From: Candidatus Heimdallarchaeota archaeon B3_Heim | GTDB lineage: Archaea > Asgardarchaeota > Heimdallarchaeia > Hodarchaeales > Hodarchaeaceae | Assembly: GCA_003144275.1 (NCBI GenBank) | Contig: NJBF01000069.1 | Location: 1 to 12,821 of the forward strand | Direction: 5' to 3' | Length of the DNA: 12,821 nt | Shown: in pieces, positions 1 to 12,821 of the stretch | How the letters are laid out: every line of letters begins with the position of its first letter | Position numbering within the stretch: the first letter of the stretch is position 1 | Notes under the pieces: model-generated | Told to the model about the DNA's origin: nothing | Databases searched by the model: none | The model's input: the letters and a program-made list of their open reading frames with translations, nothing else | Made by a program: the position numbers and the translations under genes

Positions 1-2
1 AT

Positions 3-98
3 GTTGTTTTTAACACAGAAACTAGCTCTGGTAGTTCTACTATAACCATAATTACTGTACTTCTGGCACTGATCGTCCTTCGAAAAAAGAGGAATTAA
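3..98 (+). CDS. 3' end of a gene running in from the left: C-terminal membrane anchor with basic tail
   Basis: Frame from 3 reads VVFNTETSSGSSTITIITVLLALIVLRKKRN, TAA at 96-98. This is a Ser/Thr linker, a hydrophobic helix and a polybasic tail. Confidence 0.75.
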   Translation, partial: VVFNTETSSGSSTITIITVLLALIVLRKKRN

Positions 99-122
99 TT
101 CTTGGGCGGTTTCTTACACAAT

Positions 123-257
123 TTTTCTTGTGTTAATAAACTCTCTCGGAATCAGGCCTTAGAAGCTGGATCCGAGGTCAGAATCGCGAATGGTCAATAT
201 CCCAAAAGTCTTTTATTTTAAGCATATCCCGTTAAATGTTGATATAAAGAGTATCAA
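123..257 (+). repeat. Copy R1 (shortest, right-truncated) of a three-copy dispersed element with coding signature
   Basis: Aligns with 982- and 2375- from TTTTC(T/A)TGTGTTAATAAA through AGGTCAGAATCGCGAATGGTC to AGTATCAA (257). From ATG 190 it reads MVNIPKVFYFKHIPLNVDIKSI. Confidence 0.9.
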
Positions 258-262
258 TATTC

Positions 263-988
263 TTAAATTTCTTGAATAGCCGTTCTTTTCTTCTGTCGCC
301 GTCTTCGAAGTATTATCAAACTGACACTAGGTAATAAAACGAGTACAGTTACGGTTAAAATAAGACGGGGTAATTCTTCGCTTTTGGCTTTTCTCCAAGC
401 AGCAATATCAGCAACATACAAGTGGGATGTTCCAACATCGAATAAATAACCTGGAAAAATCATGATCAATTGATAAGTCCCCTGGGCATACTCTATACTA
501 TTATTTAACCTGATATAAAACCCTATCCCAGTCATAAAATCAGCTGTGATATGTGAAACGTATTTTTCAGTAGCTTTTTGTCCTGGGTCAACGGAAAACT
601 GCTTTGGCCCTTCCCACCAATTCTCGACATTCTTGTATGTTCGAATGACTGGATTGGAATAGCTAATGTCAATCCTTGTGCTCGAATTTGCTAAAAGATC
701 TACAGTTAGATTCCACGTTTCGCCAATTCGATTAATATTACCTGCTGATGCAAGGAAAAGGCTTTCAGTTGTGTTATATAGTGAAAACGTCCCACTTTTT
801 TCTATCCTTTCGGGAGTTAATGGGAATGCGTGTAGTTCTCGATTTAAAGGTAGAAATATCATTATTAAGAATATTATACACGTGAAGTGTCCCGTCCACT
901 TTTTCATGCCCTTCTCACTCTTGATTACTTTTAAAAAAAAATATCTATTCTTATCAAATTTATTTCTTATTTCTCCGATTTTTTTCAT
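263..988 (-). CDS. Secreted, C-terminally anchored protein of unknown function (probable true start ATG at 907, MKKWTGHF)
   Basis: 241-aa ORF. MKKWTGHFTCIIFLIMIFLPLNRELHA looks like a signal peptide. The C-terminus has a TM helix (LILTVTVLVLLPSVSLIIL) followed by RRRRQKKR. The ATG at 988 lies inside repeat R2. Confidence 0.8.
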   Translation of the reverse strand: MKKIGEIRNKFDKNRYFFLKVIKSEKGMKKWTGHFTCIIFLIMIFLPLNRELHAFPLTPERIEKSGTFSLYNTTESLFLASAGNINRIGETWNLTVDLLANSSTRIDISYSNPVIRTYKNVENWWEGPKQFSVDPGQKATEKYVSHITADFMTGIGFYIRLNNSIEYAQGTYQLIMIFPGYLFDVGTSHLYVADIAAWRKAKSEELPRLILTVTVLVLLPSVSLIILRRRRQKKRTAIQEI

Positions 989-1231
989 GTGTTAATAAAG
1001 CCTCTTGTGATCAGGCCTAAGAAACAGGATCAAAGGTCAGAATCGCGAATGGTCGATGTGCCGAAAGTCTTCTATTTTAAACACATTCCATTAAACATCG
1101 ATGAAAATAGTATCAAGGTCTTCCTCCACTCCAAAGATACCTATACAGTTGAATACAGACTTTTTTAATTTAGATCTGTCCTTGTTATGACGACCCCTGA
1201 ATGTGGATGCTGGTTTCGACAAAAGAAAAAC
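982..1231 (+). repeat. Copy R2 of the three-copy element; in-frame TAA at 1166-1168
   Basis: From ATG 1049 it reads MVDVPKVFYFKHIPLNIDENSIKVFLHSKDTYTVEYRLF*FRSVLVMTTPECGCWFRQKKN, colinear with R3. Confidence 0.9.
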
Positions 1232-1257
1232 GAAGGGGGATTTATCACGATTCTTGA

Positions 1258-2274
1258 TTATTTATTCTTCTTTCGCTTCCGCCATATCCGATATCCCATT
1301 ACACCGACAATGCCTAAGAGAGGTGTAAGAAAAGAGAGATCAAAGAGTTGATTCGATTTTATATTACTTATCTGGATGTACAGATTCGCACTTGCTAACC
1401 ACACGCTCACTGTGGGTTCCCAGAATAGGTATTTTTTGGTTACATTGACTGCTGACAGTTTTATTTCAGAGTCCTCTATGATTTCCTCCCCTGCAATTGT
1501 TGTTGAAATTTTTAGACTATCCAAGGAAAATCCGTATCCCGCTTCCAATGTTATTTTATTTTCTCCTTCTATTTCCACAGGTAATCTATAAAGAAGGCTC
1601 TTACTCCCATATTCTTCGTGCCAAATAATTGGCCAATAGTTCTGGATACTTCCATTCTCAAAAATTCTAAAAAATACCCAGACGCTTGTTCGTATTGTGA
1701 AAGTTAGCATAATTGTCCAATTCAATACAGGAATAGGAATCGTCTTGGAAATTGTGTTTAACCCAAGAATCTCATCAATGATTATTGGATCTATTCCTAT
1801 CATTGCATCATTAATTGTTTGAAAGCTAATTTCTTGATTTCCAATAGTCACAGGTAAATATTCCCCAATAATTGGATCTAATGCATCTATTAAGAGAGAT
1901 TGGACATCCATGATATACAACTCTGTATGGGATTCTCGGGGAAGAATCTCACTTGTGAGGTTAATCGTTGCATTTGGTTTAATTGTTTCATCCGATTTAA
2001 AAGAGAGAAATGCATCTATTGCAATGGACACATTAAACTCGCCCACTTGCGGAGAGTAAATTAGCATCTTTTGCTCCCACTCTATGATCCCAGTATCATT
2101 GATTTTATTATCCGCGTCTGTATGATTGAATTGTGTCTTTGGATATGGGATAGTAATATCCATCAACCGTAATTTTGGATACGGTGGGTCAGATCTACTA
2201 TCCCCCAGAATTTTCGCGGGATAAAGTGAAATACTGAGAATTATAATTATGATAATTCCCAAAATACGTTTCAT
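1258..2274 (-). CDS. Secreted, C-terminally anchored protein of unknown function
   Basis: 338-aa ORF with N-terminal signal MKRILGIIIIIILSISLYPAKILG and a C-terminal hydrophobic segment followed by RIWRKRKKNK. An SD-like AGGTGA lies upstream. Confidence 0.85.
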   Translation of the reverse strand: MKRILGIIIIIILSISLYPAKILGDSRSDPPYPKLRLMDITIPYPKTQFNHTDADNKINDTGIIEWEQKMLIYSPQVGEFNVSIAIDAFLSFKSDETIKPNATINLTSEILPRESHTELYIMDVQSLLIDALDPIIGEYLPVTIGNQEISFQTINDAMIGIDPIIIDEILGLNTISKTIPIPVLNWTIMLTFTIRTSVWVFFRIFENGSIQNYWPIIWHEEYGSKSLLYRLPVEIEGENKITLEAGYGFSLDSLKISTTIAGEEIIEDSEIKLSAVNVTKKYLFWEPTVSVWLASANLYIQISNIKSNQLFDLSFLTPLLGIVGVMGYRIWRKRKKNK

Positions 2275-2282
2275 TTAGCTAA

Positions 2283-2331
2283 TTCACCTTAAGTCAGATT
2301 AATTACCCCTAATTTGTACTTAAAGCTTTCC
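2283..2331 (-). promoter_or_regulatory. Archaeal-type BRE/TATA and SD for the 1258-2274 gene
   Basis: Minus strand reads GGAAAGC-TTTAAGTA (2331-2317), about 43 nt upstream of the ATG, and AGGTGAA (2289-2283) just before the ATG. Confidence 0.6.
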
Positions 2332-2374
2332 TCGAAGTATGTAACAAAATATTCTCATGAGGTTCTATATCATC

Positions 2375-2623
2375 TTTTCATGTGTTAATAAACCCTCTTT
2401 CGAGTCTACCTAAGAAGCGAGATCCGAGGTCAGAATCGCGGATGGTCGATGGTCCAAAAGTCTTTATTTCAAGCATATCCCGTTAAACGTCGATAAAAAT
2501 AGTATTAAGGTCTTCCTCCATTCCAAAGATACCTTTTCCCTTGAATACAGTATTTTTGAACAAAAAACCGTTCATGTAACCATGGCACCAGTCTGCGGTC
2601 GTTGGTTTCGGCAAAAAAAGACC
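2375..2623 (+). repeat. Copy R3 of the three-copy element; 1-nt deletion near 2465
   Basis: Reads MVDGPKVF, then after a frameshift FKHIPLNVDKNSIKVFLHSKDTFSLEYSIFEQKTVHVTMAPVCGRWFRQKKT. The shifted frame stays open to TGA at 2759-2761. Confidence 0.9.
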
Positions 2624-2717
2624 GCCCGCGCGTTGGCCTCCATTCAGCAATTTGCCTCCACTATGGGCTTACATTCTGATTTTAATCCTTCACACCTCGA
2701 CCCCTCTATCCAATATC

Positions 2718-2732
2718 TTTTAAGTTATAAAT
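2718..2732 (+). promoter_or_regulatory. TATA-like element for the 2758 gene
   Basis: TTTTAAGTTATAAAT lies 26-40 nt upstream of the ATG. Confidence 0.45.
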
Positions 2733-2757
2733 CTCCAGTTAAGAGTAGATTTTTACC

Positions 2758-3483
2758 ATGAGTATTTCCAATATTTCGCTCACTTTTTCATATTTACATC
2801 CTGTATGGTTTATTATCAGCTTTTTCGGAGTGATCCTAATCGAAGGAGGGATTTATTATTTTTATTTTCATGATGCGCTTAGAGCGCTTAAGTTCGCAGC
2901 CATTGCAAATACGATAACTACGTTTTTTCCCCTTCCCTTACTGTTATTTCCTATATTTTCTCGAACAGATACTCTTATGGAGGATGGATATATCGTTCAA
3001 GGAGGATCCGAGATGCATTCCCTCTGGTTGATCCCGATTATCTTCGGATTCGTACTCCTTGTTGATTTACCCCCCGCTCCTCCATATGCCTATAACGTGG
3101 TTACCTCTGATTATATCTGGACATTTTTTATATTTATGATGGCATTTGTGTTGTCTGCCATCATTGAATTTTATTTTATTCGAATAGCAAGTACACCTGG
3201 GGAGAACGAGGGTAATCTTACACTTTCCCGACTAAAAATGGTTTTATTTGCAAATCTAGCAACGTATATTCTCATCGTTGGTTGTTTGATAAGTATCGGT
3301 TTTCTAGCTGCTGTTTCCGGAGTTATTGATCCTATTAGTGAGCTCTCCTGGTTATTCTCCACCAATGCTGGGAATGTAGGATTGATTCTCCTGTTTTTTG
3401 TTATTTTTCTTTTCGTGTTCGCGTTGATCGTCAGTTTGATGAAGGGTTTTATTCCAGTGCAAAGATTGAAAACTGGGAATTAG
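2758..3483 (+). CDS. Polytopic membrane protein with internal two-fold repeat
   Basis: 241 aa with about 6-7 hydrophobic segments. The motif W...IE.....(K)....AN..T occurs twice. Confidence 0.8.
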   Translation: MSISNISLTFSYLHPVWFIISFFGVILIEGGIYYFYFHDALRALKFAAIANTITTFFPLPLLLFPIFSRTDTLMEDGYIVQGGSEMHSLWLIPIIFGFVLLVDLPPAPPYAYNVVTSDYIWTFFIFMMAFVLSAIIEFYFIRIASTPGENEGNLTLSRLKMVLFANLATYILIVGCLISIGFLAAVSGVIDPISELSWLFSTNAGNVGLILLFFVIFLFVFALIVSLMKGFIPVQRLKTGN

Positions 3484-3538
3484 AATTGTTGTTCCCACTG
3501 TCATTTGTCTAATCTCCGTCAATGGGCAATTGTCATTT

Positions 3539-3718
3539 TTAAGTACTAATGACTTCCCCCTGGATCTGTCTACGTCTTTTGATTTCAGTACCCTTCAAGC
3601 TCCTCCCCACCAGCGACGCCTCCAGACCTCGTATCAGCAGCCTGTCTTTGACCCCATTGATGAAATTGCTTTCTTCAGAATACACAGAGAGGAATTCAAA
3701 GAATAAAGAAAATATCAT
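3539..3718 (-). CDS. Possible 59-aa small protein (below the ORF-track cutoff)
   Basis: Reads MIFSLFFEFLSVYSEESNFINGVKDRLLIRGLEASLVGRSLKGTEIKRRRQIQGEVIST*, with GAGGAG 6 nt upstream of the ATG. Confidence 0.3.
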   Translation of the reverse strand: MIFSLFFEFLSVYSEESNFINGVKDRLLIRGLEASLVGRSLKGTEIKRRRQIQGEVIST

Positions 3719-3844
3719 TACTTCTCCTCATTTTTTCAGAAAGTTGAACGAAGAAGAACTGATTAAAATAATATTACATGAAGAAAATCCAGAACGACAA
3801 GATTAATCTTAAACGGCATAATCCATAGCGATGAATTCAAAAAA

Positions 3845-3890
3845 AAGAAATCTTATATATCCCGAAAGATACCAAAACTATTTTGGAGGT
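3845..3890 (+). promoter_or_regulatory. BRE/TATA-like promoter and SD for the beta-helix gene
   Basis: AAGAAATCTTATATAT at 3845-3860. GGAGGT at 3885-3890 lies 7 nt before an in-frame TTG at 3898. Confidence 0.55.
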
Positions 3891-6069
3891 ATTTATATTG
3901 AGACGAAGACGTTTTTTAGGAATGATTTGTATTTATCCAATAAGAATAGTTATTATCTTATTTCTTTTTATAAATTTGATTTTTGTCTTTAATTCGCACT
4001 TTAGTGAATTTATTTCTCATCAAGAAAATATGAAGGCTTTTTATAACAAAAATGAGTCAGAAAATCACAGAGTTAACCCTAAAATCATGTACATGACACG
4101 AACTACCCCTATCCAAATTTCAAGCTATGGAGAGCTTGTTTCGTTTTCCAGTACGGGTTTCGGAACAAAAAGTCAACCATTTATTATCGATGGGTGGAAT
4201 GTAACAACTAATACCGGTCCATGTATCAGTGTTTCAACCACTGACTATTATTTTATCATCAGGGACAATATATTTAATGGAATTGATAATTCATATAATG
4301 GCGTCTTTCTTGATCATACCGTGAACGGAACTATTGCTTTTAATGAGATTTATAATTGTAAAAATGGTTTATATGCTGATTTTGCCCGATTCAATAACTT
4401 GTCTGGTAACACCATTTATGGTAACTCAGAACACGGGATTTATCTGGCATCGTCTTCCCGATTTATAAACATCACAGCCAACGATATAACCGCCAATACA
4501 CTAAATGGTATATACGTGTCGTGGTCGCCTTTTAATAATATTACAGACAACACAATTTATGCAAATATTAAGACTGGAATTGAATTAAATGGATTAACTG
4601 CGGCAGACAATACGATAGCAAGAAATATCATTTATAACAATACATTACATGGAATTCATGCAAGAAATAATGCAGAAAGAAACAAAATAAACGAGAATAA
4701 TCTTACGTCTAATCAAGAAAATGGTATGCGATTAGAAAACTCCCCAGATAATATTATCACGAGCAATAATATCTCCAATAATTATCAAGATGGAATCCTC
4801 ATTTCTACTTCTAATGGAAATATGTTATCGGGGAATGAGGTTTATAGAAATGTTTGGAACGGGGTAAAACTCGTTAACTCCGACGATGTGAGCGTTAATG
4901 GAAATAATATTTTCTTTAATTTCCAAAATGGAATATGGTACGACAGATCTAATCATTCCTCATTTATTCTGAATAATGTTTACAACAATTCTTGGGCAGG
5001 GATAGGAGTAGATTTTTCAATGACTAATACCTTTGGATCTAACACAATTTATGAAAATGATCATGGAATTGCGGTTTCCTTCTCAAATGATATAGAAATA
5101 TCTGAGAATTCAGTCGATAAAAATGCTCTAACGGGAATCGTAATCTACAACACTATTGACGTAACTTTGGAGCTAAATGATATCACTAATAACGAGGATG
5201 AGGGGATATTATTATTAGAATCAAGCAATTTGATTATACGGTATAATAATTTAATTGATAATATCTACGACTCTTCTCGTCCCCAAATTAACGATACTGG
5301 ATCGTCGAATCTTATACAATATAACTATTATGATGATTGGTTGGCTGGAACTAATGACTCTGATGGCATTGTGGATAACCCTTACGTTTTTTCTGGAACA
5401 GCTTCTAATTCGGATGCCTTTCCCGTTTGCTCCGCCTTTAATTTCAGCTACATTCCCCCTATAACAAATCTTGATATTATATCTCCCGATGGAGGCGAAG
5501 TATTTGATGATGACGATAATATATTAATTCAATGGACGGCTCCCTATGACCCCTTGACCAGAAGTGTGGTCTACACTCTCTATTATTCCTCAGATAATGG
5601 TTTTTCATGGAATATACTCGTTGGATCCTGGATAGAAACCACATTCAACTGGAATTCCTTATCAAGTCTCCCTAAAACAAGCATTTATCTTATCAAAGGA
5701 ACAGGAACAATAGAAGGAGGAATTAATCTCGAAGGTGTTTCAGCAGGGAATTTTGAAATTCAATCAACTAGTACAACAACGACTACCCTACCTACAACAA
5801 CAACGACTATTACACAGGAGGATGGATTGTTTGGTACGGTAGAACAAGTTGCAGGTGCAGCAGTAGCTGTTATCAGTCTTATGGTTGGATCATATGGATT
5901 TGTGAGGGGAGTTCTTCCGCGACTCTTACGAAGTAGAAAAGAAAAAGCAGCAATTGAGAAATTCAAGGCGTCTAAGGCCACTGAAGAGGAAATTATCAAA
6001 ATTGCAGAAGAATCTGGTATCTCTGTAGCCGAATTTAAAAAAGTACTAAAACAAGAGGGTTATCTTTAA
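3883..6069 (+). CDS. Cell-surface right-handed parallel beta-helix (PbH1/NosD-like) protein with Ig-like domain, Thr-rich linker and TM anchor (probable start TTG 3898)
   Basis: Many N.I.GN.I..N...GI.L repeats. A SPDGGE...IQW...YTLYYSSDNG Ig-like module is followed by STSTTTTTLPTTTTTIT, a TM segment (VAGAAVAVISLMVGSYGFV) and a charged cytoplasmic tail. Confidence 0.9.
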   Translation: MEVFILRRRRFLGMICIYPIRIVIILFLFINLIFVFNSHFSEFISHQENMKAFYNKNESENHRVNPKIMYMTRTTPIQISSYGELVSFSSTGFGTKSQPFIIDGWNVTTNTGPCISVSTTDYYFIIRDNIFNGIDNSYNGVFLDHTVNGTIAFNEIYNCKNGLYADFARFNNLSGNTIYGNSEHGIYLASSSRFINITANDITANTLNGIYVSWSPFNNITDNTIYANIKTGIELNGLTAADNTIARNIIYNNTLHGIHARNNAERNKINENNLTSNQENGMRLENSPDNIITSNNISNNYQDGILISTSNGNMLSGNEVYRNVWNGVKLVNSDDVSVNGNNIFFNFQNGIWYDRSNHSSFILNNVYNNSWAGIGVDFSMTNTFGSNTIYENDHGIAVSFSNDIEISENSVDKNALTGIVIYNTIDVTLELNDITNNEDEGILLLESSNLIIRYNNLIDNIYDSSRPQINDTGSSNLIQYNYYDDWLAGTNDSDGIVDNPYVFSGTASNSDAFPVCSAFNFSYIPPITNLDIISPDGGEVFDDDDNILIQWTAPYDPLTRSVVYTLYYSSDNGFSWNILVGSWIETTFNWNSLSSLPKTSIYLIKGTGTIEGGINLEGVSAGNFEIQSTSTTTTTLPTTTTTITQEDGLFGTVEQVAGAAVAVISLMVGSYGFVRGVLPRLLRSRKEKAAIEKFKASKATEEEIIKIAEESGISVAEFKKVLKQEGYL

Positions 6070-6087
6070 TTTTCAATAATACCGACC

Positions 6088-6597
6088 TTACTCTTTTAAC
6101 GGACTTTTAATAAGGTAATTATAGACATACCTTATCAATTTTTTTTCTACAGCCCACATTATTATCTTATAGGCTATTTCAAAGCTGCACCATTTCCAAT
6201 CTGTATGTTCCGGAGGATTCAGCACCGGATCCTGGGGTTGATCTATTAGAGCGATGAAATTATAAAATGTAATCTTTTCTAATTCTTCTTGAAGCTGAGG
6301 AGGACTTCTATCACCCTCATCTTCATCATTTTCGATATATAATTCTTGAGGAATGTTAAGCGGGAGTATAAGAGCAGGAATGTATGCTGTTTCTTCATAT
6401 AGTTCTCTTTTTGCACACTCCAGAGGACTTTCTCCTTTCGGGTGATCAAGGGCCCCCATGGTATCCCCTACTGAACCACTTACGCATTGCCAATTGTAAC
6501 TCAATGTAGTCCTTTTTATCATGAGAAATTCTAAATTGTTGTTTTTGTACCTGATGGGATAAACATTAACCATCTCTTTCTGAACCATCATACTCAC
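6088..6597 (-). CDS. Nudix hydrolase, NudB-like
   Basis: Nudix box GESPLECAKRELYEETAY. WQCVSGSV resembles NudB WQSVTGSV, and there is a C-terminal EHTDWKW motif. Confidence 0.85.
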   Translation of the reverse strand: MSMMVQKEMVNVYPIRYKNNNLEFLMIKRTTLSYNWQCVSGSVGDTMGALDHPKGESPLECAKRELYEETAYIPALILPLNIPQELYIENDEDEGDRSPPQLQEELEKITFYNFIALIDQPQDPVLNPPEHTDWKWCSFEIAYKIIMWAVEKKLIRYVYNYLIKSPLKE

Positions 6598-6990
6598 TTT
6601 AAATCATGATTAGTTAAAAATAATAAATCTGAATTAATTATACCATCATTAAATTTGTTCCTAGTAAGATTCGACTTAACCTCATTAATTGCATAAACAC
6701 CTTCTGCTCTGTCCAATAGGCGGGTGGCTAATGGGGTAAATAGGGCAAACACTTTTGTGATAACCGATCCTGATACTCCAAATGACTAATTCTCCGAGCG
6801 AATAATTCTCCTCTAGATGCTGATACCCTTTAGATTTCGGTCCTCTCTTAATAATAATCCTTTGCATTGTTTTATAAATTCATAAATACTATAATCTCAT
6901 TCATTCTTATATTTACTATTGGTTTTTAAATGTTAATTCTTCATCACAGAGAGCCTGTAGAAGGATATCGAGGTTTGTTGAGAGAGGTTT

Positions 6991-8790
6991 ATGGTGGATC
7001 GGAATCAAGAATTTACTAAAGTATTTACAAAAGATGTTCTTAATTCAACTGCGAATTTTATTGGTGATTTGGTTGATCAATCAAAAAGCAACGTCAATTT
7101 TTACCAAAGGCAATTGGCCAAGCATTTGTTTAAACTGGGAATACGCGTTCCAGATAGCGATCTGATTCATCGTGCAAAGGATATTCTCCCAAATTTGTCC
7201 GTTCTTGATCAAATCAATGTGTATTCCGAGATTGCCAATTATTATTTACTCAATCCATTCTTTCCCGATCAAGATTCAGGTGAAGTCTATCTACAGAAAG
7301 CCCTAGAGGTGTGGAGAAAGTCTCTATCCGAAGGACATCGACCAAAGCAACTTCTGAGTTCCTATGATTATTTTAATCATGATCTAAGGTTATTATCAAC
7401 TGTCATTAAATTTAAAGACAAATCCGCTCTCCAAGAGGTGAAACAAGGATGTCTGGATTTCATTACGACTTGTCCTCGTAATATCCAACCCCTCTTACTC
7501 GTCTCCTTTGCAGAACGGCTTCAAGAGGTTGAGGATAATTCTCAACTTCATGAATATCTCCAGAAAGCGGATAATATCGTCCAAGATTCTTCTCAAACTC
7601 AACATAAAATTATTGAGACCGATTTAGAGAGATCGCATACGAATTATCTTGTTCCCCAAGCCGCTCAGCAGCAAGTAGTGTTAAGTAATTCTCTTTTTGA
7701 CCTCCAACTTGCTCTTGCGCAAGCTACTAAGGATCCTTCCATCCTTAAGTCGTTATTGACTAGCGTCCAGAATATGGAAATGATGCATTTTCCATTTTCC
7801 TCCATCCCATTACTTCTGATTGCAAAAGCTTTCTACACGCTTGGAGATCCCACCTCCGCGCTTTCTCTTTTTCAGGATGTTTTAGGGGATTTACTAGATG
7901 ACACGAATGATATGATGAAATCTCTCCCTCAAGCGGGAATGTTTCTTCCTATTATCGCTTCACGTTTTGCGAAGATTTGCCTAGAATTGAATGAAACCGA
8001 TTTAGCTCGTAAGGTTGTTCCCATTCTCACCAAATCGAAACAAGACAAGCAATTCGCATTTCTTAGTGAGAATAAATCACTTTTAATTGACTTAGGAGCA
8101 TATACTAGTGATGATTTACGTAAAGACATAAATTGTCTTAAAAAACGAATAGAAACTCTTCAGATCAAAGGTGAAAAGAACCTAGATCCCAAAGTATTTA
8201 TTCCCAATCTGTTTGCAGGGATACCTGAGGAGGCGGAGCTTTCAGTAAAACTCGCGGAGCTTCAAACGTGTGCAGAGAATTTGGGAGTGGAAGTCCTAAA
8301 ACAAGCAATTTCATCCATAGAAACTACATTAGTTGAAAAAATCTCACAAGCGAGAGGGTGGAAAGAACCAAGAAAGAATTATCTGGATATGTTTAAAGAA
8401 TCACAACCAAAATCAACTCCTGATATGATACTAGAGGCATTTAAAGTAGGAAATATTGATCAGGGAATTTCTCTCTTGAAAGAATTTGAACAGCTGATTC
8501 ACCAACAAATTGAAACCCAGCAAAATCGGAGAAAGACCCCTCCATCTGTTCCAAATCTTCCCCCAGGAGTATTATATGGTGATGCAGCTATGGGTTGGCT
8601 TTTACTACTATCTTCTCTTGCAAGTGTCTATGTCAAAGTAGATCAATCCAAGAAAGCCTCTCCCATTCTTGAGGAAATTAAAACATATTTAGAGGCGAGT
8701 AAGGATAAACTCGATGCTGTCATTAAAACTGCTCAGCCTGCGTTCCCGATACTGCAGCTTTTCAGATCCTATCATGAGTTAAAACTTACA
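6991..8790 (+). CDS. ~600-aa alpha-helical (TPR/solenoid-like) protein; no own stop, reads in frame into an intI fragment (ORF ends 9312)
   Basis: GAGAGG lies before the ATG. The sequence is Leu/Ala/Glu/Lys-rich with helical patterns (e.g. EVYLQKALEVW, ALSLFQDVL) and a Pro-rich PPSVPNLPPG stretch. The 3' boundary is approximate. Confidence 0.65.
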
Positions 8791-9403
8791 GTGGGTTGTA
8801 GTGACAGTGAGATTTCTGAAATCATCAGACGAATGAAACATCCATACAGGCTCATGACGGAAATAATCTACGGCGGCGGGCTCAGGCTTTCCGAATGTTT
8901 GAATCTCCGCATAAAAGATGTAGATTTTAAGAATAATATTTTGACTATCCGCTCGGGCAAAGGAGATAAGGACAGGCAGACGCTTCTCTCAACAAGAGTC
9001 CTGCCTGCCTTGAAGAAGCAGATACAGGATATCAGAAAATACTATGAAGATGACCGTTTCGAAGATCGTCCCGGTGTTGAACTTCCCAGGGCTCTTGAGA
9101 GAAAATTTCCCAATGCGGGCAAAGAATGGGCATGGTTCTGGGTCTTTCCATCGGCGAGAATCTCCGTGGATCCCAGAAGTGGTATAGCCAGGAGGCATTA
9201 TATGTTTACAAGCTCTTTACAAAAATCCTTCAAAACAGCTCTAAGTGTATCTGGAATAGCAAAAAACGCGAGTATCCATACTCTACGCCTTCTTTGCCAC
9301 ACATCTTGTTGAAAGCGGCTATGATATCCGGACTATCCAGGAGCTCCTTGGGCATTCCAATGTCTCTACTACAATGATCTATTATGACAAGCAAGTTCTT
9401 ATG
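8782..9403 (+). pseudogene. intI: Integron integrase, C-terminal catalytic half; N-truncated, frameshifted, IS-interrupted
   Basis: Motifs YGGGLR and RSGKGDKDR, the IntI-specific insert VELPRALERKFPNAGKEWAWFWVFPS, and HTLR. After a net 2-nt loss near 9289-9295 it continues [29 protein letters not shown] (Tyr at 9380). Confidence 0.92.
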
Positions 9404-9530
9404 TGTCCAGGGTAATTACAATTCCCCATTAATTCCAGTTCAGGGTAATTAAGATTCCCCAGTGGGAAAGGTCCAGGGTAATTACAATTCCCCACCTTTT
9501 TCCATTTAGGGTAATCATATTCCCCACCCC
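9404..9530 (+). repeat. IS21 left end: four subterminal repeats at 33-bp period
   Basis: (C/T)AGGGTAAT...ATTCCCCA begins at 9408, 9441, 9474 and 9507. Confidence 0.9.
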
Positions 9531-9601
9531 ACAGATGTATAGTCAACTACTGGTGATACTCATACTATCCTTCCAGTTAACAAACAAATACTGGAGGAGA
9601 T

Positions 9602-11170
9602 ATGGGGTATCGAAGAATGACAAAAGAAGATGTGTATGAAATCCTACGCAGATGGCATGCCGGTCAAAGCATGTCTCGGATTGCTTCTGTTGAGAGGTGT
9701 GACCGGAAAACAATTCGAAAATATATTCAGAAGTTCAATGCAGCAGGATTGAGAATTGGCCAGAGCCTTCCTGGTAAAGAGAAGATATGGGAGCTTATTG
9801 ATGCCAGTATACTGCCATCAGTAGAACGTGTGCGGCCGGCCTCCAAACAGCTGGAACCATTAATAAAACCTATTCAGGAAATGATTCAGGATTCGAAAGA
9901 GCCTATTAAGCCAAAGAGCGCATTCAAAGTTCTGAAGGCAAAGCACAATATTGATGTGAGCTATGAAACCTTTAAAAACTTTGTCCGAAAGAGGGAGCTG
10001 TCGAAGAAACCTCTCAAGCAGATGATTCGTATTGAACTACCGCCCGGTCTTGAGACCCAAATAGATTACGGTAAAGTCGGCCTGCTTGAGGATCCATCCA
10101 CGGGAAAAAGGAGGGTGATCTGGGCTTTCTGCGGGCTTCTGTCTCACTCACGACTACCATTTATCCAGTTTGTGTATACTCAAAACCAGAGTTCCTTTGC
10201 TGAAAGCTTTATCGACATGTTTGAATATTACGGAGGACTTACTGAGATCCAGTCGATCGACAATCTAAAAGCAGGAGTCATTAAACCTGATCTGTACGAC
10301 CCTAAGCTGAATAGAACTCTTCTTGAGGTAGCGGAATACTATGGCACTTTTATTGATCCCTGCAGGGTAGGCAAAGCCACGGACAAGGCCAAAATAGAGC
10401 GTTTTATACCAACCGTCAGGGAGGTGTTCCGCATCTTGAAAAAGATTCACCCTACAGCAGATATACATACGCTGAATGCTCATGTTCTATCATGGTGCCG
10501 AGAGGAATACGGGACAAGAGAGCACGGCACCACAGGAAGAGAACCCATGGAAGTTTTCGAGGAAGTGGAAAAGCAGACTTTAAAACCTATTCCGGAAGAA
10601 CGTCTTGAAGTGCCTGTATGGGCTCCGGCTCATGTTCACCGCGGTGATCAGATGTTTACTTTTGATAAAAAAAGGTATTCGGTTCCTGCCTTCTACAAGG
10701 GGCAGGATTTATGGGTTCGCTACACTGAGAAGAACAGGCTGCTGCGGGTATTTTCCGATAGGCGGTTGATCCGTGAGTATGTGGTTACAGGGAAAGCCAT
10801 AAACTATTTTGATGAGGATTACCCTGAAGTCAAACGAGAGATGATGAATGGAGGCTATCCCCGGTATCTGTTGAATCAGGCTAAGGACTACGGAGAAGCC
10901 AGCCACAGGCTTGTTGAGTCGATATTGAAGCCTCATGCCTATCTAAACTGCAGGAGAGTCCAGGGGGTGCTGGGAATCATGAAAAAATACAGCAAGAAGC
11001 CATTCTATGAGAAAGTCTGCGGAAAAGCCTTAAAGATAGGGGTCAAGTTACCTCAAACCTTCAAGGCTATGCTGCAGGCAGAGGAGAAACAGCTTCAACT
11101 CGACGTAAAGATCGGTATCTCAGATTTAGGACGACAGATGATCAGGGATGCCTCGTATTACATGAATTAA
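9602..11170 (+). CDS. istA: IS21-family DDE transposase
   Basis: 522 aa with an N-terminal HTH and DDE motifs QIDYG, SIDNLKAGV and KAKIER. SD GGAGGAG. Confidence 0.95.
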   Translation: MGYRRMTKEDVYEILRRWHAGQSMSRIASVERCDRKTIRKYIQKFNAAGLRIGQSLPGKEKIWELIDASILPSVERVRPASKQLEPLIKPIQEMIQDSKEPIKPKSAFKVLKAKHNIDVSYETFKNFVRKRELSKKPLKQMIRIELPPGLETQIDYGKVGLLEDPSTGKRRVIWAFCGLLSHSRLPFIQFVYTQNQSSFAESFIDMFEYYGGLTEIQSIDNLKAGVIKPDLYDPKLNRTLLEVAEYYGTFIDPCRVGKATDKAKIERFIPTVREVFRILKKIHPTADIHTLNAHVLSWCREEYGTREHGTTGREPMEVFEEVEKQTLKPIPEERLEVPVWAPAHVHRGDQMFTFDKKRYSVPAFYKGQDLWVRYTEKNRLLRVFSDRRLIREYVVTGKAINYFDEDYPEVKREMMNGGYPRYLLNQAKDYGEASHRLVESILKPHAYLNCRRVQGVLGIMKKYSKKPFYEKVCGKALKIGVKLPQTFKAMLQAEEKQLQLDVKIGISDLGRQMIRDASYYMN

Positions 11171-11187
11171 AACAAAAGGAGGAATAG

Positions 11188-11937
11188 ATGGAGATCAAAC
11201 AACACCTGGAACAGAACATGAAGAGGCTGAAAATGCCTGGAATGATGTACAATCTGGAGCTGAGACTTCAAGAAGCCCGGGAGAATCAATTAGGGCACCT
11301 TGAGTTTTTATCTCTGCTTTTTCAGGATGAGCTTCTTAACCGGGAAGGCAATAATTTTCAAAAACGTATCAAGGCAGCGGGGTTTGGAGTAATCAAAACC
11401 TTTGAGGGGTTTGATTTTAACTTTAACGAGGAAGCCTTCTCTTCTTCGCTTATTCGTGATCTGGCTACCTGTCATTTTTGGGAGCAGAGACGAAATCTGG
11501 TTCTCTGTGGGCCTAGCGGGATTGGAAAATCCCACATTGCAAAAGCTATCGGACATGAGATATGCAGGAGAGGAGAAAATGTACTATTCAAGAAAACGGG
11601 CAAGCTATTACAGGAATTGATGAAACTACCCCACAGTGGGCGGGCTGAACGATTATTTAGAAAGTGTGTCAAAGCAGGTTTACTGATTCTTGATGATTTT
11701 GCCTTTCGAAAGTTCGACCAAAAAGAATCTGAGCTTCTCTATGGGCTGGCGGATGAACGGCTGGGGAGAGCTTCAACAATTCTTACCTCAAATCGGCCAC
11801 CTCAGGATTGGTATGGTATCTTTCCAGACCCTGTTATCGGTCAGGCTATTTTAGATCGTCTTGTCTCCGGAGCAGTGAAAGTGATTACCACCAAAGGAAA
11901 GTCTTACCGCAAAGAAGGGAAATTTGGAATCGAATGA
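11188..11937 (+). CDS. istB: IS21-family AAA+ helper ATPase
   Basis: 249 aa with Walker A GPSGIGKS, Walker B LLILDD, TSNRPPQDW and AILDRL. SD GGAGG. Confidence 0.95.
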   Translation: MEIKQHLEQNMKRLKMPGMMYNLELRLQEARENQLGHLEFLSLLFQDELLNREGNNFQKRIKAAGFGVIKTFEGFDFNFNEEAFSSSLIRDLATCHFWEQRRNLVLCGPSGIGKSHIAKAIGHEICRRGENVLFKKTGKLLQELMKLPHSGRAERLFRKCVKAGLLILDDFAFRKFDQKESELLYGLADERLGRASTILTSNRPPQDWYGIFPDPVIGQAILDRLVSGAVKVITTKGKSYRKEGKFGIE

Positions 11938-12293
11938 ATGTTAAATTATCTCTAATAACCATGATGGTTAAACCTGTAAGGTCCGGAATAGGATTCATGC
12001 GTCTGAAAGGCTTTTATCGGATTCAAAGACTCTTCTCAGTCTATTCAGGAAAAACGTGTCTCGTGATGGCCCGTGAAGGCATTTTCTCAGATGACCTGGT
12101 ATCGAAGTACCTCCCTGAAAAGAGGATCCTGGCAGCTTGTGAAACTAACAGCCATGGTTTTTTAATAATATGTGAATGCGTTGAGGGTTACCCCCCAATC
12201 GGCTTTCGGCGGATTTCTAACGATCCGCCGAGCCTCATGTGGATAACCCGTGAAAGGGCGAACTTGATTGACAAGAGAGTAAGATGCATTTAG
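11934..12293 (+). CDS. 119-aa passenger ORF inside the IS, unknown function
   Basis: ATG at 11934 overlaps the istB TGA (ATGA). The ORF fills the space up to the right end (MNVKLSLITMMVKPVRSG...KRVRCI). Confidence 0.55.
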   Translation: MNVKLSLITMMVKPVRSGIGFMRLKGFYRIQRLFSVYSGKTCLVMAREGIFSDDLVSKYLPEKRILAACETNSHGFLIICECVEGYPPIGFRRISNDPPSLMWITRERANLIDKRVRCI

Positions 12294-12317
12294 TTTAGAT
12301 GCAGGGTATCACCGGCA

Positions 12318-12370
12318 GGGGTGGGGAATTGTAATTACCCTGGGGGTGGGGAATATGATTACCCTGGACA
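12318..12370 (-). repeat. IS21 right end: two subterminal repeats, 24-bp period
   Basis: GGGGTGGGGAATTGTAATTACCCTG followed by GGGGTGGGGAATATGATTACCCTGGACA, reverse complements of the left-end repeats. Confidence 0.9.
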
Positions 12371-12398
12371 ACTTACCGGGAAAAAATCAGGAGTTTAG
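12371..12398 (+). pseudogene. intI: Probable separated 3' tail of intI
   Basis: Removing the IS plus 7 bp gives VL(M/T)GKKSGV*, in register with the IntI C-terminal VLNRGGRGV-type motif. Confidence 0.45.
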
Positions 12399-12413
12399 CT
12401 CGCATGGTACTGC

Positions 12414-12509
12414 AGGCAACAGCTTATACCCGGTTTTACTCTCTTCGGTCGTTTCACCCAAATTGGCTCCCGTTGGTCGCCAACTTCTTTTACCCGCGCC
12501 CCGTTATAT
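12414..12509 (+). other. attC-like (or attI-region) integron recombination site, degenerate
   Basis: AGGCAAC...GTTATAT spans 96 bp and contains an internal hairpin AAATTGGC/GCCAACTT. It lies 27 bp before a gene with its own RBS. The L-box arms pair poorly. Confidence 0.5.
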
Positions 12510-12536
12510 GCAATGTTGCACAAAAAAGGAATAGTT

Positions 12537-12821
12537 ATGAAACAATGGTATGAAACTCTATTTGAAAACTATGGTATGAAGTATGACAAAGAATGTTTTG
12601 TACAGGGAACTATCGGAGAGTGCGACTTTATTGAAAATGAAATTGACTTTAATAAAAATATCAAAATTTTAGATATCGGATGCGGTACGGGCCGCCATTC
12701 AATAGAATTAGCAAAGCGTGGATATTCGGTAACAGGAGCTGATTTGTCCAAGTCGATGTTAAAACACGCAAAAGAGAAGGCAATGGAACAAAAAGTAAAT
12801 GTTGATTTTAAAAAAGCAGAT
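12537..12821 (+). CDS. Class I SAM-dependent methyltransferase (5' part; runs off the window), probable integron cassette
   Basis: Reads MKQWYETLFENYGMKYDKECF...ILDIGCGTGRHSIELAKRGYSVTGADLSKSML, with motif I DxGxGxG. RBS AAAGGA upstream. Confidence 0.9.
   Translation, partial: MKQWYETLFENYGMKYDKECFVQGTIGECDFIENEIDFNKNIKILDIGCGTGRHSIELAKRGYSVTGADLSKSMLKHAKEKAMEQKVNVDFKKAD

Follow-up and report, generated by a model that had tools for sequence, protein, structure and literature searches.

The question raised by this locus is whether an open reading frame (ORF) of 773 codons, in which some 600 residues of helical protein run without a stop into the sequence of an integron integrase (IntI), encodes a new two-domain protein or merely records an accident of DNA joining. 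The ORF lies on the + strand, from the ATG at 6991 to the TGA ending at 9312, of contig NJBF01000069.1 of Candidatus Heimdallarchaeota archaeon B3_Heim. That contig, all 12,821 bp of which were analysed and which is called the window here, is one of 103 contigs (C77) in a metagenome-assembled genome (MAG, G000) of 3.95 Mb with an estimated completeness of 94%. The 773-codon ORF is an accidental in-frame join of a truncated Asgard helical-repeat gene with a broken bacterial-type intI, and not a new two-domain protein. With moderate confidence, we favour the view that the junction is real, that it was mediated by microhomology between the host chromosome and acquired bacterial-type integron and insertion sequence (IS) DNA, and that the resulting fusion is non-functional. 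The first-pass annotation of the sequence had ranked an accidental read-through above an assembly chimera, and both above a co-opted dead recombinase domain, and the evidence given below supports that order.

Firstly, the C-terminal part of the ORF was characterised. When the translation was compared with Pfam and NCBIfam, an integrase was found at the C-terminal end only, and nothing significant was found in the first 600 residues. PF00589 matched residues 607-767 (E 1.5e-18, 67.6 bits, profile positions 7-134 of 172), and TIGR02249 matched with 185.9 bits, in a stretch covering model positions 88-265 of 315; the whole-protein cut-off is 265 bits, and this intI is a fragment. The IntI-specific domain around patch III is present, as the TIGR02249 match is unbroken across positions ~183-236, a segment skipped by the XerA-like recombinases of related genomes, and the motif ALERKFPNAGKEWAWFWVFPS is conserved. 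The last 160 or so residues are therefore IntI sequence, as had been claimed. The in-frame fragment (8827-9288, + strand) corresponds to residues ~209-363 of a 415-residue IntI and carries Arg I (GGGLRL), the catalytic Lys (GKGDKDR), the IntI-specific insert and HxxR (HTLR). The first-pass annotation had recognised these residues in frame, and an end before the second His and the Tyr; to this it must be added that the codons for His and Tyr persist out of frame, within 9293-9382. Its statement that the N-terminal domain of IntI is missing was also borne out, since no match to the core-binding domain PF13495 was obtained in the ORF, and a search throughout G000 with residues 1-135 of an intact relative (P0006) gave no match for an N-terminal fragment.

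The parentage of this part is clear from its closest relatives. For residues 613-767 these are IntIs of ~415 residues with an N-terminal PF13495 domain, the nearest being P0005 and P0006, 95% and 91% identical, respectively. P0006 is named as an integron integrase from a Planctomycetes MAG, and is encoded on VRUG01000099.1, a 5.8-kb contig of the Planctomycetota MAG MohnsGC08_bin181 from the Mohns Ridge (deep sea); VRUG01000269.1 is a further Mohns Ridge MAG contig. At the DNA level, 8806-9381 of the window is 90.5% identical by blastn to VRUG01000099.1 (L021), and the alignment ends at 9381. Many of the database relatives of the intI piece are themselves 5'-truncated, their start having been assigned to the internal Met within LM(A/T)EIIYGGGLRL.

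The N-terminal part has an entirely different parentage. Codons 1-612 (6991-8826, + strand) are a truncated host gene of genome-typical composition, whose product is the N-terminal 60% of a predicted all-alpha family resembling tetratricopeptide-repeat (TPR) proteins, about 930-1025 residues long and known only from Hodarchaeota-type Asgard genomes. Residues 1-588 were compared with 5.8 billion cluster representatives, and gave three matches of 1017, 1025 and 931 residues, at 55-61% identity and none with a Pfam domain. The 1017-residue match (P0002) is 61% identical, and that of 1025 residues (P0003, named Candidatus Hodarchaeota archaeon) is 55% identical. A HMMER scan of 1.84 billion 50%-clusters returned only 15 relatives, the complete members of which have 931-1025 residues. 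The AlphaFold2 (AF2) model of residues 1-612 is predicted to be all-alpha, with 31 helices and a mean pLDDT of 73. Its best Foldseek matches are TPR or designed-repeat/solenoid proteins, with TM-scores of just 0.13-0.24, and no TPR profile was significant (TPR_12 scored 16.5 bits vs a cut-off of 30.1); a protein atlas search with the family gave weak leads only, either unnamed or TPR. The label "helical solenoid-like" is a fair description of the predicted structure. The roughly 600 residues first described as a helical protein are thus indeed all-helical in the model, but they are not a whole protein, being only the first 612 of about 930-1025 residues.

The way in which the intact homologues end bears on the question of a fusion family. 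After a conserved EII they continue with (T/K)N(F/Y)QK(F/Y)DPEGL... and about 410 conserved residues, an unrelated C-terminal module, and none of them carries an integrase domain. The first-pass annotation had itself named such an outcome as the one that speaks against a genuine family of solenoid and IntI fusions. Other fusions of this type were sought, and there were none among the 15 family representatives from the 1.84 billion clusters, nor among all the 90%-cluster matches. The ~410-residue module of the helical family was also searched for across the 94%-complete genome G000 and was not found. The helical gene is accessory, being present in 4 of 41 related genomes with neighbours that are not conserved. 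Gene order around it was compared in three of these genomes (G019, G021 and G003) in order to find the other side of the event, and no synteny was seen because the gene occupies variable regions. Neither the helical protein nor its alignment gave a match in JGI metagenome contigs, and viral contigs yielded none with that alignment or with IntI.

The position of the join can be read at close to base resolution. The first-pass annotation had taken the peptide KLTVGCSDSEISEII (8782-8826) for a degraded form of RLPVVLS..EI, the usual start of the IntI catalytic domain. That assignment was wrong. In pairwise alignments the homology to the helical family reaches and includes ...GCSDSEISEII, ie ...KLTVGCSDSEISEII, the equivalent peptide being KLKMGCSESEIDEII in P0002 and MLDIGCSDATINEII in P0003, and the stretch is therefore native to the helical family. 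Its likeness to the IntI sequence RLPLVLSQREVSEII is due to chance, and its last residues are the microhomology that joins the two genes. In the tblastn alignments the site is ...RRLPLVLSQREVSEII-RRMKHPYRLMTEIIYGG in the IntI relatives, as against ...KLTVGCSDSEISEII-RRMKHPYRLMTEIIYGG in the window; the closest intact IntI relatives read RLPLVLSQREVSEII-RRMKHPYRLM across the site. Both parents share E(I/V)SEII, of which EII is conserved in the helical family. The Ile608 codon att (8812-8814) encodes the residue of the helical family, where the closest IntIs carry Val (gtt). From 8813 onwards the window is identical to the intI of L021 for 28 nt (TTTCTGAAATCATCAGACGAATGAAACA), and the DNA of a helical homologue at the same site is GAG ATC ATC A. 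Taken together, these three observations place the crossover within 8813-8827 (+ strand), in a shared stretch of 9-15 nt, TTTCTGAAATCATC(A), and the fusion is in frame because either parent reads this stretch as (S)EII in one and the same frame. For an IntI parent similar to its nearest known relatives, the two parents would overlap exactly over ~9-15 nt; the loosest assumptions raise this to no more than 19-22 nt.

Downstream of the join the integrase gene is broken twice more. Alignment to L024, which has an intact HTLRHSFATH, and to L021 reveals a net deletion of 2 nt right after HTLR (9286-9293, + strand) which alters the HTLR-HSFATH box. Because the deletion directly follows HTLR, the second His and the Tyr nucleophile are put out of frame. 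The 773-codon frame runs past the deletion and terminates as LLCHTSC, with its stop codon at 9310-9312, upstream of both residues. The out-of-frame remainder of intI (9293-9382, + strand) was recovered by tblastn with P0006, in frame +2 and with 28 of 30 identities. It contains the second His and the Tyr codon (9380-9382), at which homology to intI ceases. R, K and HxxR are the only members of the R-K-HxxR-H-Y set that remain together in a single frame. There are accordingly three separate lesions (a truncated 5' end, a frameshift of 2 nt and a 3' end lost beside an IS), and they agree with the accidental origin that had been ranked first. The fused copy is decaying, as judged from the lesions other than the fusion itself.

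The closest relatives of this intI are each damaged at the catalytic HxxR-H box in a different way. The window has the 2-nt deletion, P0005 is frameshifted, and in L021 and L023 the box reads HTLAYSFAIH, with RH changed to AY; the intI of L023 also has a large internal deletion of about residues 30-236. P0007-P0009 diverge immediately past HTLRH into YAE(C/R)RIMP..., which may be the footprint of an insertion or excision. P0037, an IntI of 71% identity from another contig, likewise diverges right after the Tyr (…TMIY-YEKIFFM…; the window has a different sequence at 9380-9403), which may point to a comparable event there.

Everything to the right of the junction is foreign to this genome in composition. 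The G+C content of 8806-12821 is 0.439, compared to 0.361 ± 0.019 for 4-kb segments of the genome, of which 0.3% are higher. Its tetranucleotide distance is in the top 1%, and the left 8 kb of the window is genome-typical. Neither a true IntI nor a related IstA was found among 40 related genomes, in which the matches to TIGR02249 are XerA-like recombinases without the IntI insert. One such recombinase of ~300 residues is present in nearly every genome of the genus (G001-G023, eg L010-L020). These proteins match the IntI model in two pieces, at positions 11-182 and 237-303, and hence are seen to be without the insert; screens that use E-values only could miscount them as IntI.

The second component of the foreign block is an apparently intact IS21-family element (9404-12370, + strand), with istA at 9602-11170 and istB at 11188-11937. 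It is separated from the Tyr codon by a spacer of 21 nt (9383-9403), which has no significant match to the 3' end of intI or to the inverted repeat of the IS. Its termini are of the TG...CA type, with TGTCCAGGG at 9404 and CCCTGGACA at 12370, and a repeat of ~24 nt is present in four copies at the left end and two at the right. IstA (522 residues) scored 195.2 bits against NF033546, for which the cut-off is 160, and is 92% identical over its full length to P0125; those of its relatives that are named are bacterial (Aminicenantes, Deltaproteobacteria and Spirochaetaceae). IstB (249 residues) matched PF01695 with E 3e-57, over positions 2-235 of 238. No target-site duplication of 4-8 bp was found in the flanks, ...TTCTTATG and ACTTACCG..., which is consistent with an adjacent deletion or rearrangement. 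A by-eye resemblance to a displaced 3' end of intI beyond the IS was rejected, its alignment score being no better than those of shuffled sequences. An additional ORF of 161 codons (11808-12293), without a family match, overlaps the end of istB.

The association of this IS with intI has a counterpart outside the window. At ~180 nt downstream of intI, two of the Planctomycetota MAG contigs, L021 (2062-2131) and L023 (1038-1109), retain an isolated piece of the right end of this IS, ~70 nt long. The remnant consists of one repeat unit ending in CCCTGGACA, and the sequence beyond it differs between the two contigs. Since both have an IS-end remnant downstream of intI, the association of intI with the IS is older than the join with the archaeal gene.

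After the IS, the window continues with a spacer of 140-170 nt and the start of an S-adenosylmethionine (SAM)-methyltransferase-like ORF (12371-12821, + strand); the ORF begins at 12513 or 12538 and is cut off by the end of the contig. Within the genome it resembles other methyltransferases only weakly and in a generic way, and it may be a first cassette candidate. Integrons have been documented in Asgard MAGs, with attI immediately downstream of intI (PMC9668308), and the layout here of intI, IS, spacer and + strand ORF fits the downstream-attI arrangement described for archaeal integrons. A scan of 8600-12821 with Rfam gave no match; just 450 nt are left between the IS and the end of the contig.

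These features suggest the following course of events. A bacterial-type mobile block, made up of the catalytic half of intI, the IS21-family element and DNA beyond the contig end, would have been joined to the Hodarchaeal chromosome inside an accessory TPR-like gene. The two DNAs would have met at the microhomology ...TCT GAA ATC ATC A..., which supplies (S)EII to either gene in the same frame, and the pattern points to microhomology-mediated end joining or slippage. The event may have been an insertion or an adjacent deletion, in which the last ~410 host codons and the first ~208 intI codons, with the DNA-binding N-terminal domain, would have been lost. The intI remnant is further inactivated by the 2-nt deletion after HTLR, and its 3' end past the Tyr codon is gone beside the IS. 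The transfer probably ran from bacteria to archaea. Whether the junction is real or chimeric, the 773-residue product is probably without function, because the fusion stands alone, 40% of the length of the host protein is missing, and what is left of the integrase has neither a DNA-binding domain nor a nucleophile.

Several observations weigh against a real junction of this kind. The junction is known from one assembly alone, and the MAG has an estimated contamination of 3.9%. The contig ends 4 kb past the junction, and no archaeal DNA appears beyond the foreign block. The IS21-family element is present in a single copy in the genome. The fragment is only 41-50% identical to the other Asgard-binned IntIs. 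Finally, the ratio of non-synonymous to synonymous substitution rates (dN/dS) of the in-frame IntI part against L021 is 0.16 (23 synonymous and 15 non-synonymous differences), but as a pairwise value it reflects intact ancestors and is not assignable to the fused branch; it shows only past constraint in those ancestors and does not date the decay.

The most serious alternative is an assembly or library chimera, in which archaeal DNA (1-8826) and a bacterial integron/IS21 fragment (8813-12821) from different organisms became linked through their short shared sequence, whether in silico or by template switching. We regard this as possible but unlikely. It would explain the abrupt change of composition at the junction, the bacterial labels on the closest relatives of intI and IstA and the absence of both from the 40 related genomes. 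It would equally account for a foreign part that extends to the contig end with no archaeal sequence past it, for the single copy of the IS, and for a join exactly within a shared oligonucleotide. However, the overlap of ~9-15 nt, or at most 19-22 nt, falls short of the smallest k-mers commonly used in assembly, or at best just reaches them, and is much shorter than the final k; an overlap of ~15 nt is too short for a de Bruijn join at k of 21 or more. If the join were artificial, the genuine last 1.2 kb of the helical gene would have to exist elsewhere, and it is nowhere in a bin that is 94% complete. No other contig overlaps either end of the window contig. Integrons in Asgard MAGs have a precedent (PMC9668308), and true IntI matches were found in 5 of 400 Asgard genomes, this one included.

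A breakpoint in another species of the genus bears on a second alternative. In G003 a contig of 3,384 bp (G003:C13) carries a homologue (L036, 1624-3384) that is 38% identical to the helical protein. The contig, whose terminal stretch is ...GAAATCGGAATAATC, ends exactly after ...KLKMGCNEREIGII (…EIGII), at the same alignment column as the window junction (8824-8826, …SEISEII). We estimate the probability of such a coincidence by chance to be low, of the order of one in a hundred to one in a thousand. The helical C-terminal module was sought in G003 and not found, and no contigs overlapping the end of G003:C13 were detected.

On the second alternative, the codon after ...EII would be a recurrent breakpoint and, if so, a site through which mobile or foreign DNA preferentially enters. 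The IntI C-terminal fragment would then be one arm of an integrated cross-domain element that had split its own integrase gene by site-specific integration, in the manner of the SSV-type archaeal integrases, whose attP lies inside int. The remainder of the host gene, together with the N-terminal fragment of IntI, would be expected at the far end of the element. We consider this very improbable. It has in its favour that intI is cut exactly between its N-terminal and catalytic domains, at a sequence shared with the host gene, and that the G003 homologue stops at the same column (...GCNEREIGII) in a genome from which the C-terminal module is likewise missing. Against this, G000 holds neither the IntI N-terminal nor the helical C-terminal fragment, and a true IntI and a related IstA are both missing from G003. 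Between the two genomes the DNA at the site lacks the conservation expected of a recombinase core, and the shared stretch is just 9-15 nt. Moreover, IntI-type enzymes are not known to split their own gene by site-specific integration.

That the ORF is a functional co-opted fusion, with a catalytically dead integrase domain as the DNA-binding module on a TPR-like scaffold, is scarcely credible: 773 open codons do stand behind a plausible archaeal promoter and start, and the IntI part keeps a low dN/dS against its relatives, but the latter is explained by divergence among intact ancestors, no integrase domain occurs in the 15 family representatives or in the 90%-cluster matches, the host protein is short of 40% of its conserved length, and the IntI part ends in frameshifted junk within the catalytic box and lacks a third of its domain.

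The preferred reading, a real microhomology junction, can be placed among known systems. In sedentary chromosomal integrons, integrase genes are often found truncated, frameshifted or interrupted by an IS. The fragment resembles such pseudogenes of decaying chromosomal integrons in being a true IntI, with the insert, that has been inactivated by truncation, frameshift and an adjacent IS. It differs from them in that an unrelated host gene reads in frame into its truncated 5' end, and in that a bacterial-affiliated integrase is found in an Asgard host. As in the archaeal integrons described by Ghaly et al. (2022, PMC9668308), parts of an integron occur in an Asgard MAG, with intI followed by a co-oriented downstream ORF where attI and cassettes are expected. 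Those archaeal IntIs were reported to form a clade apart from the bacterial ones (PMC9668308), whereas the fragment in the window is dead, is 91-95% identical to Planctomycetota-binned IntIs, and stands far from the other Asgard-binned enzymes.

The join itself has two possible analogies. It is like the microhomology-mediated illegitimate recombination that makes chimeric ORFs at the borders of foreign DNA, in that it lies inside a short identical stretch and sequence has been lost on both sides. It departs from that class in that the mechanism is read here from the sequence, and the second junction of the event lies off the contig. The other parallel is with the SSV-type (type I) archaeal integrases, whose gene is partitioned on integration: there too an N-terminal and a C-terminal part are separated, and the integrase gene borders host DNA at a sequence that the two have in common. 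Unlike in those systems, no Int(N) partner was found, the recombinase is of the bacterial IntI type, the common core spans very few nucleotides, and a protein-coding gene, not a tRNA gene, is the target.

As a protein the fusion is a pseudogene artefact, and its annotation as a new recombinase architecture is unwarranted; what is of some interest is the cross-domain DNA junction only. A chimeric junction would be a useful caution for integron counts in archaeal MAG surveys. A real one would be a base-resolved and physically linked case of recently acquired bacterial-type integron and IS21 DNA in the chromosome of a Heimdall-group Asgard archaeon. The joining route would then have been microhomology and not site-specific recombination, which would bear on how DNA crosses between domains into the archaeal lineage closest to eukaryotes.

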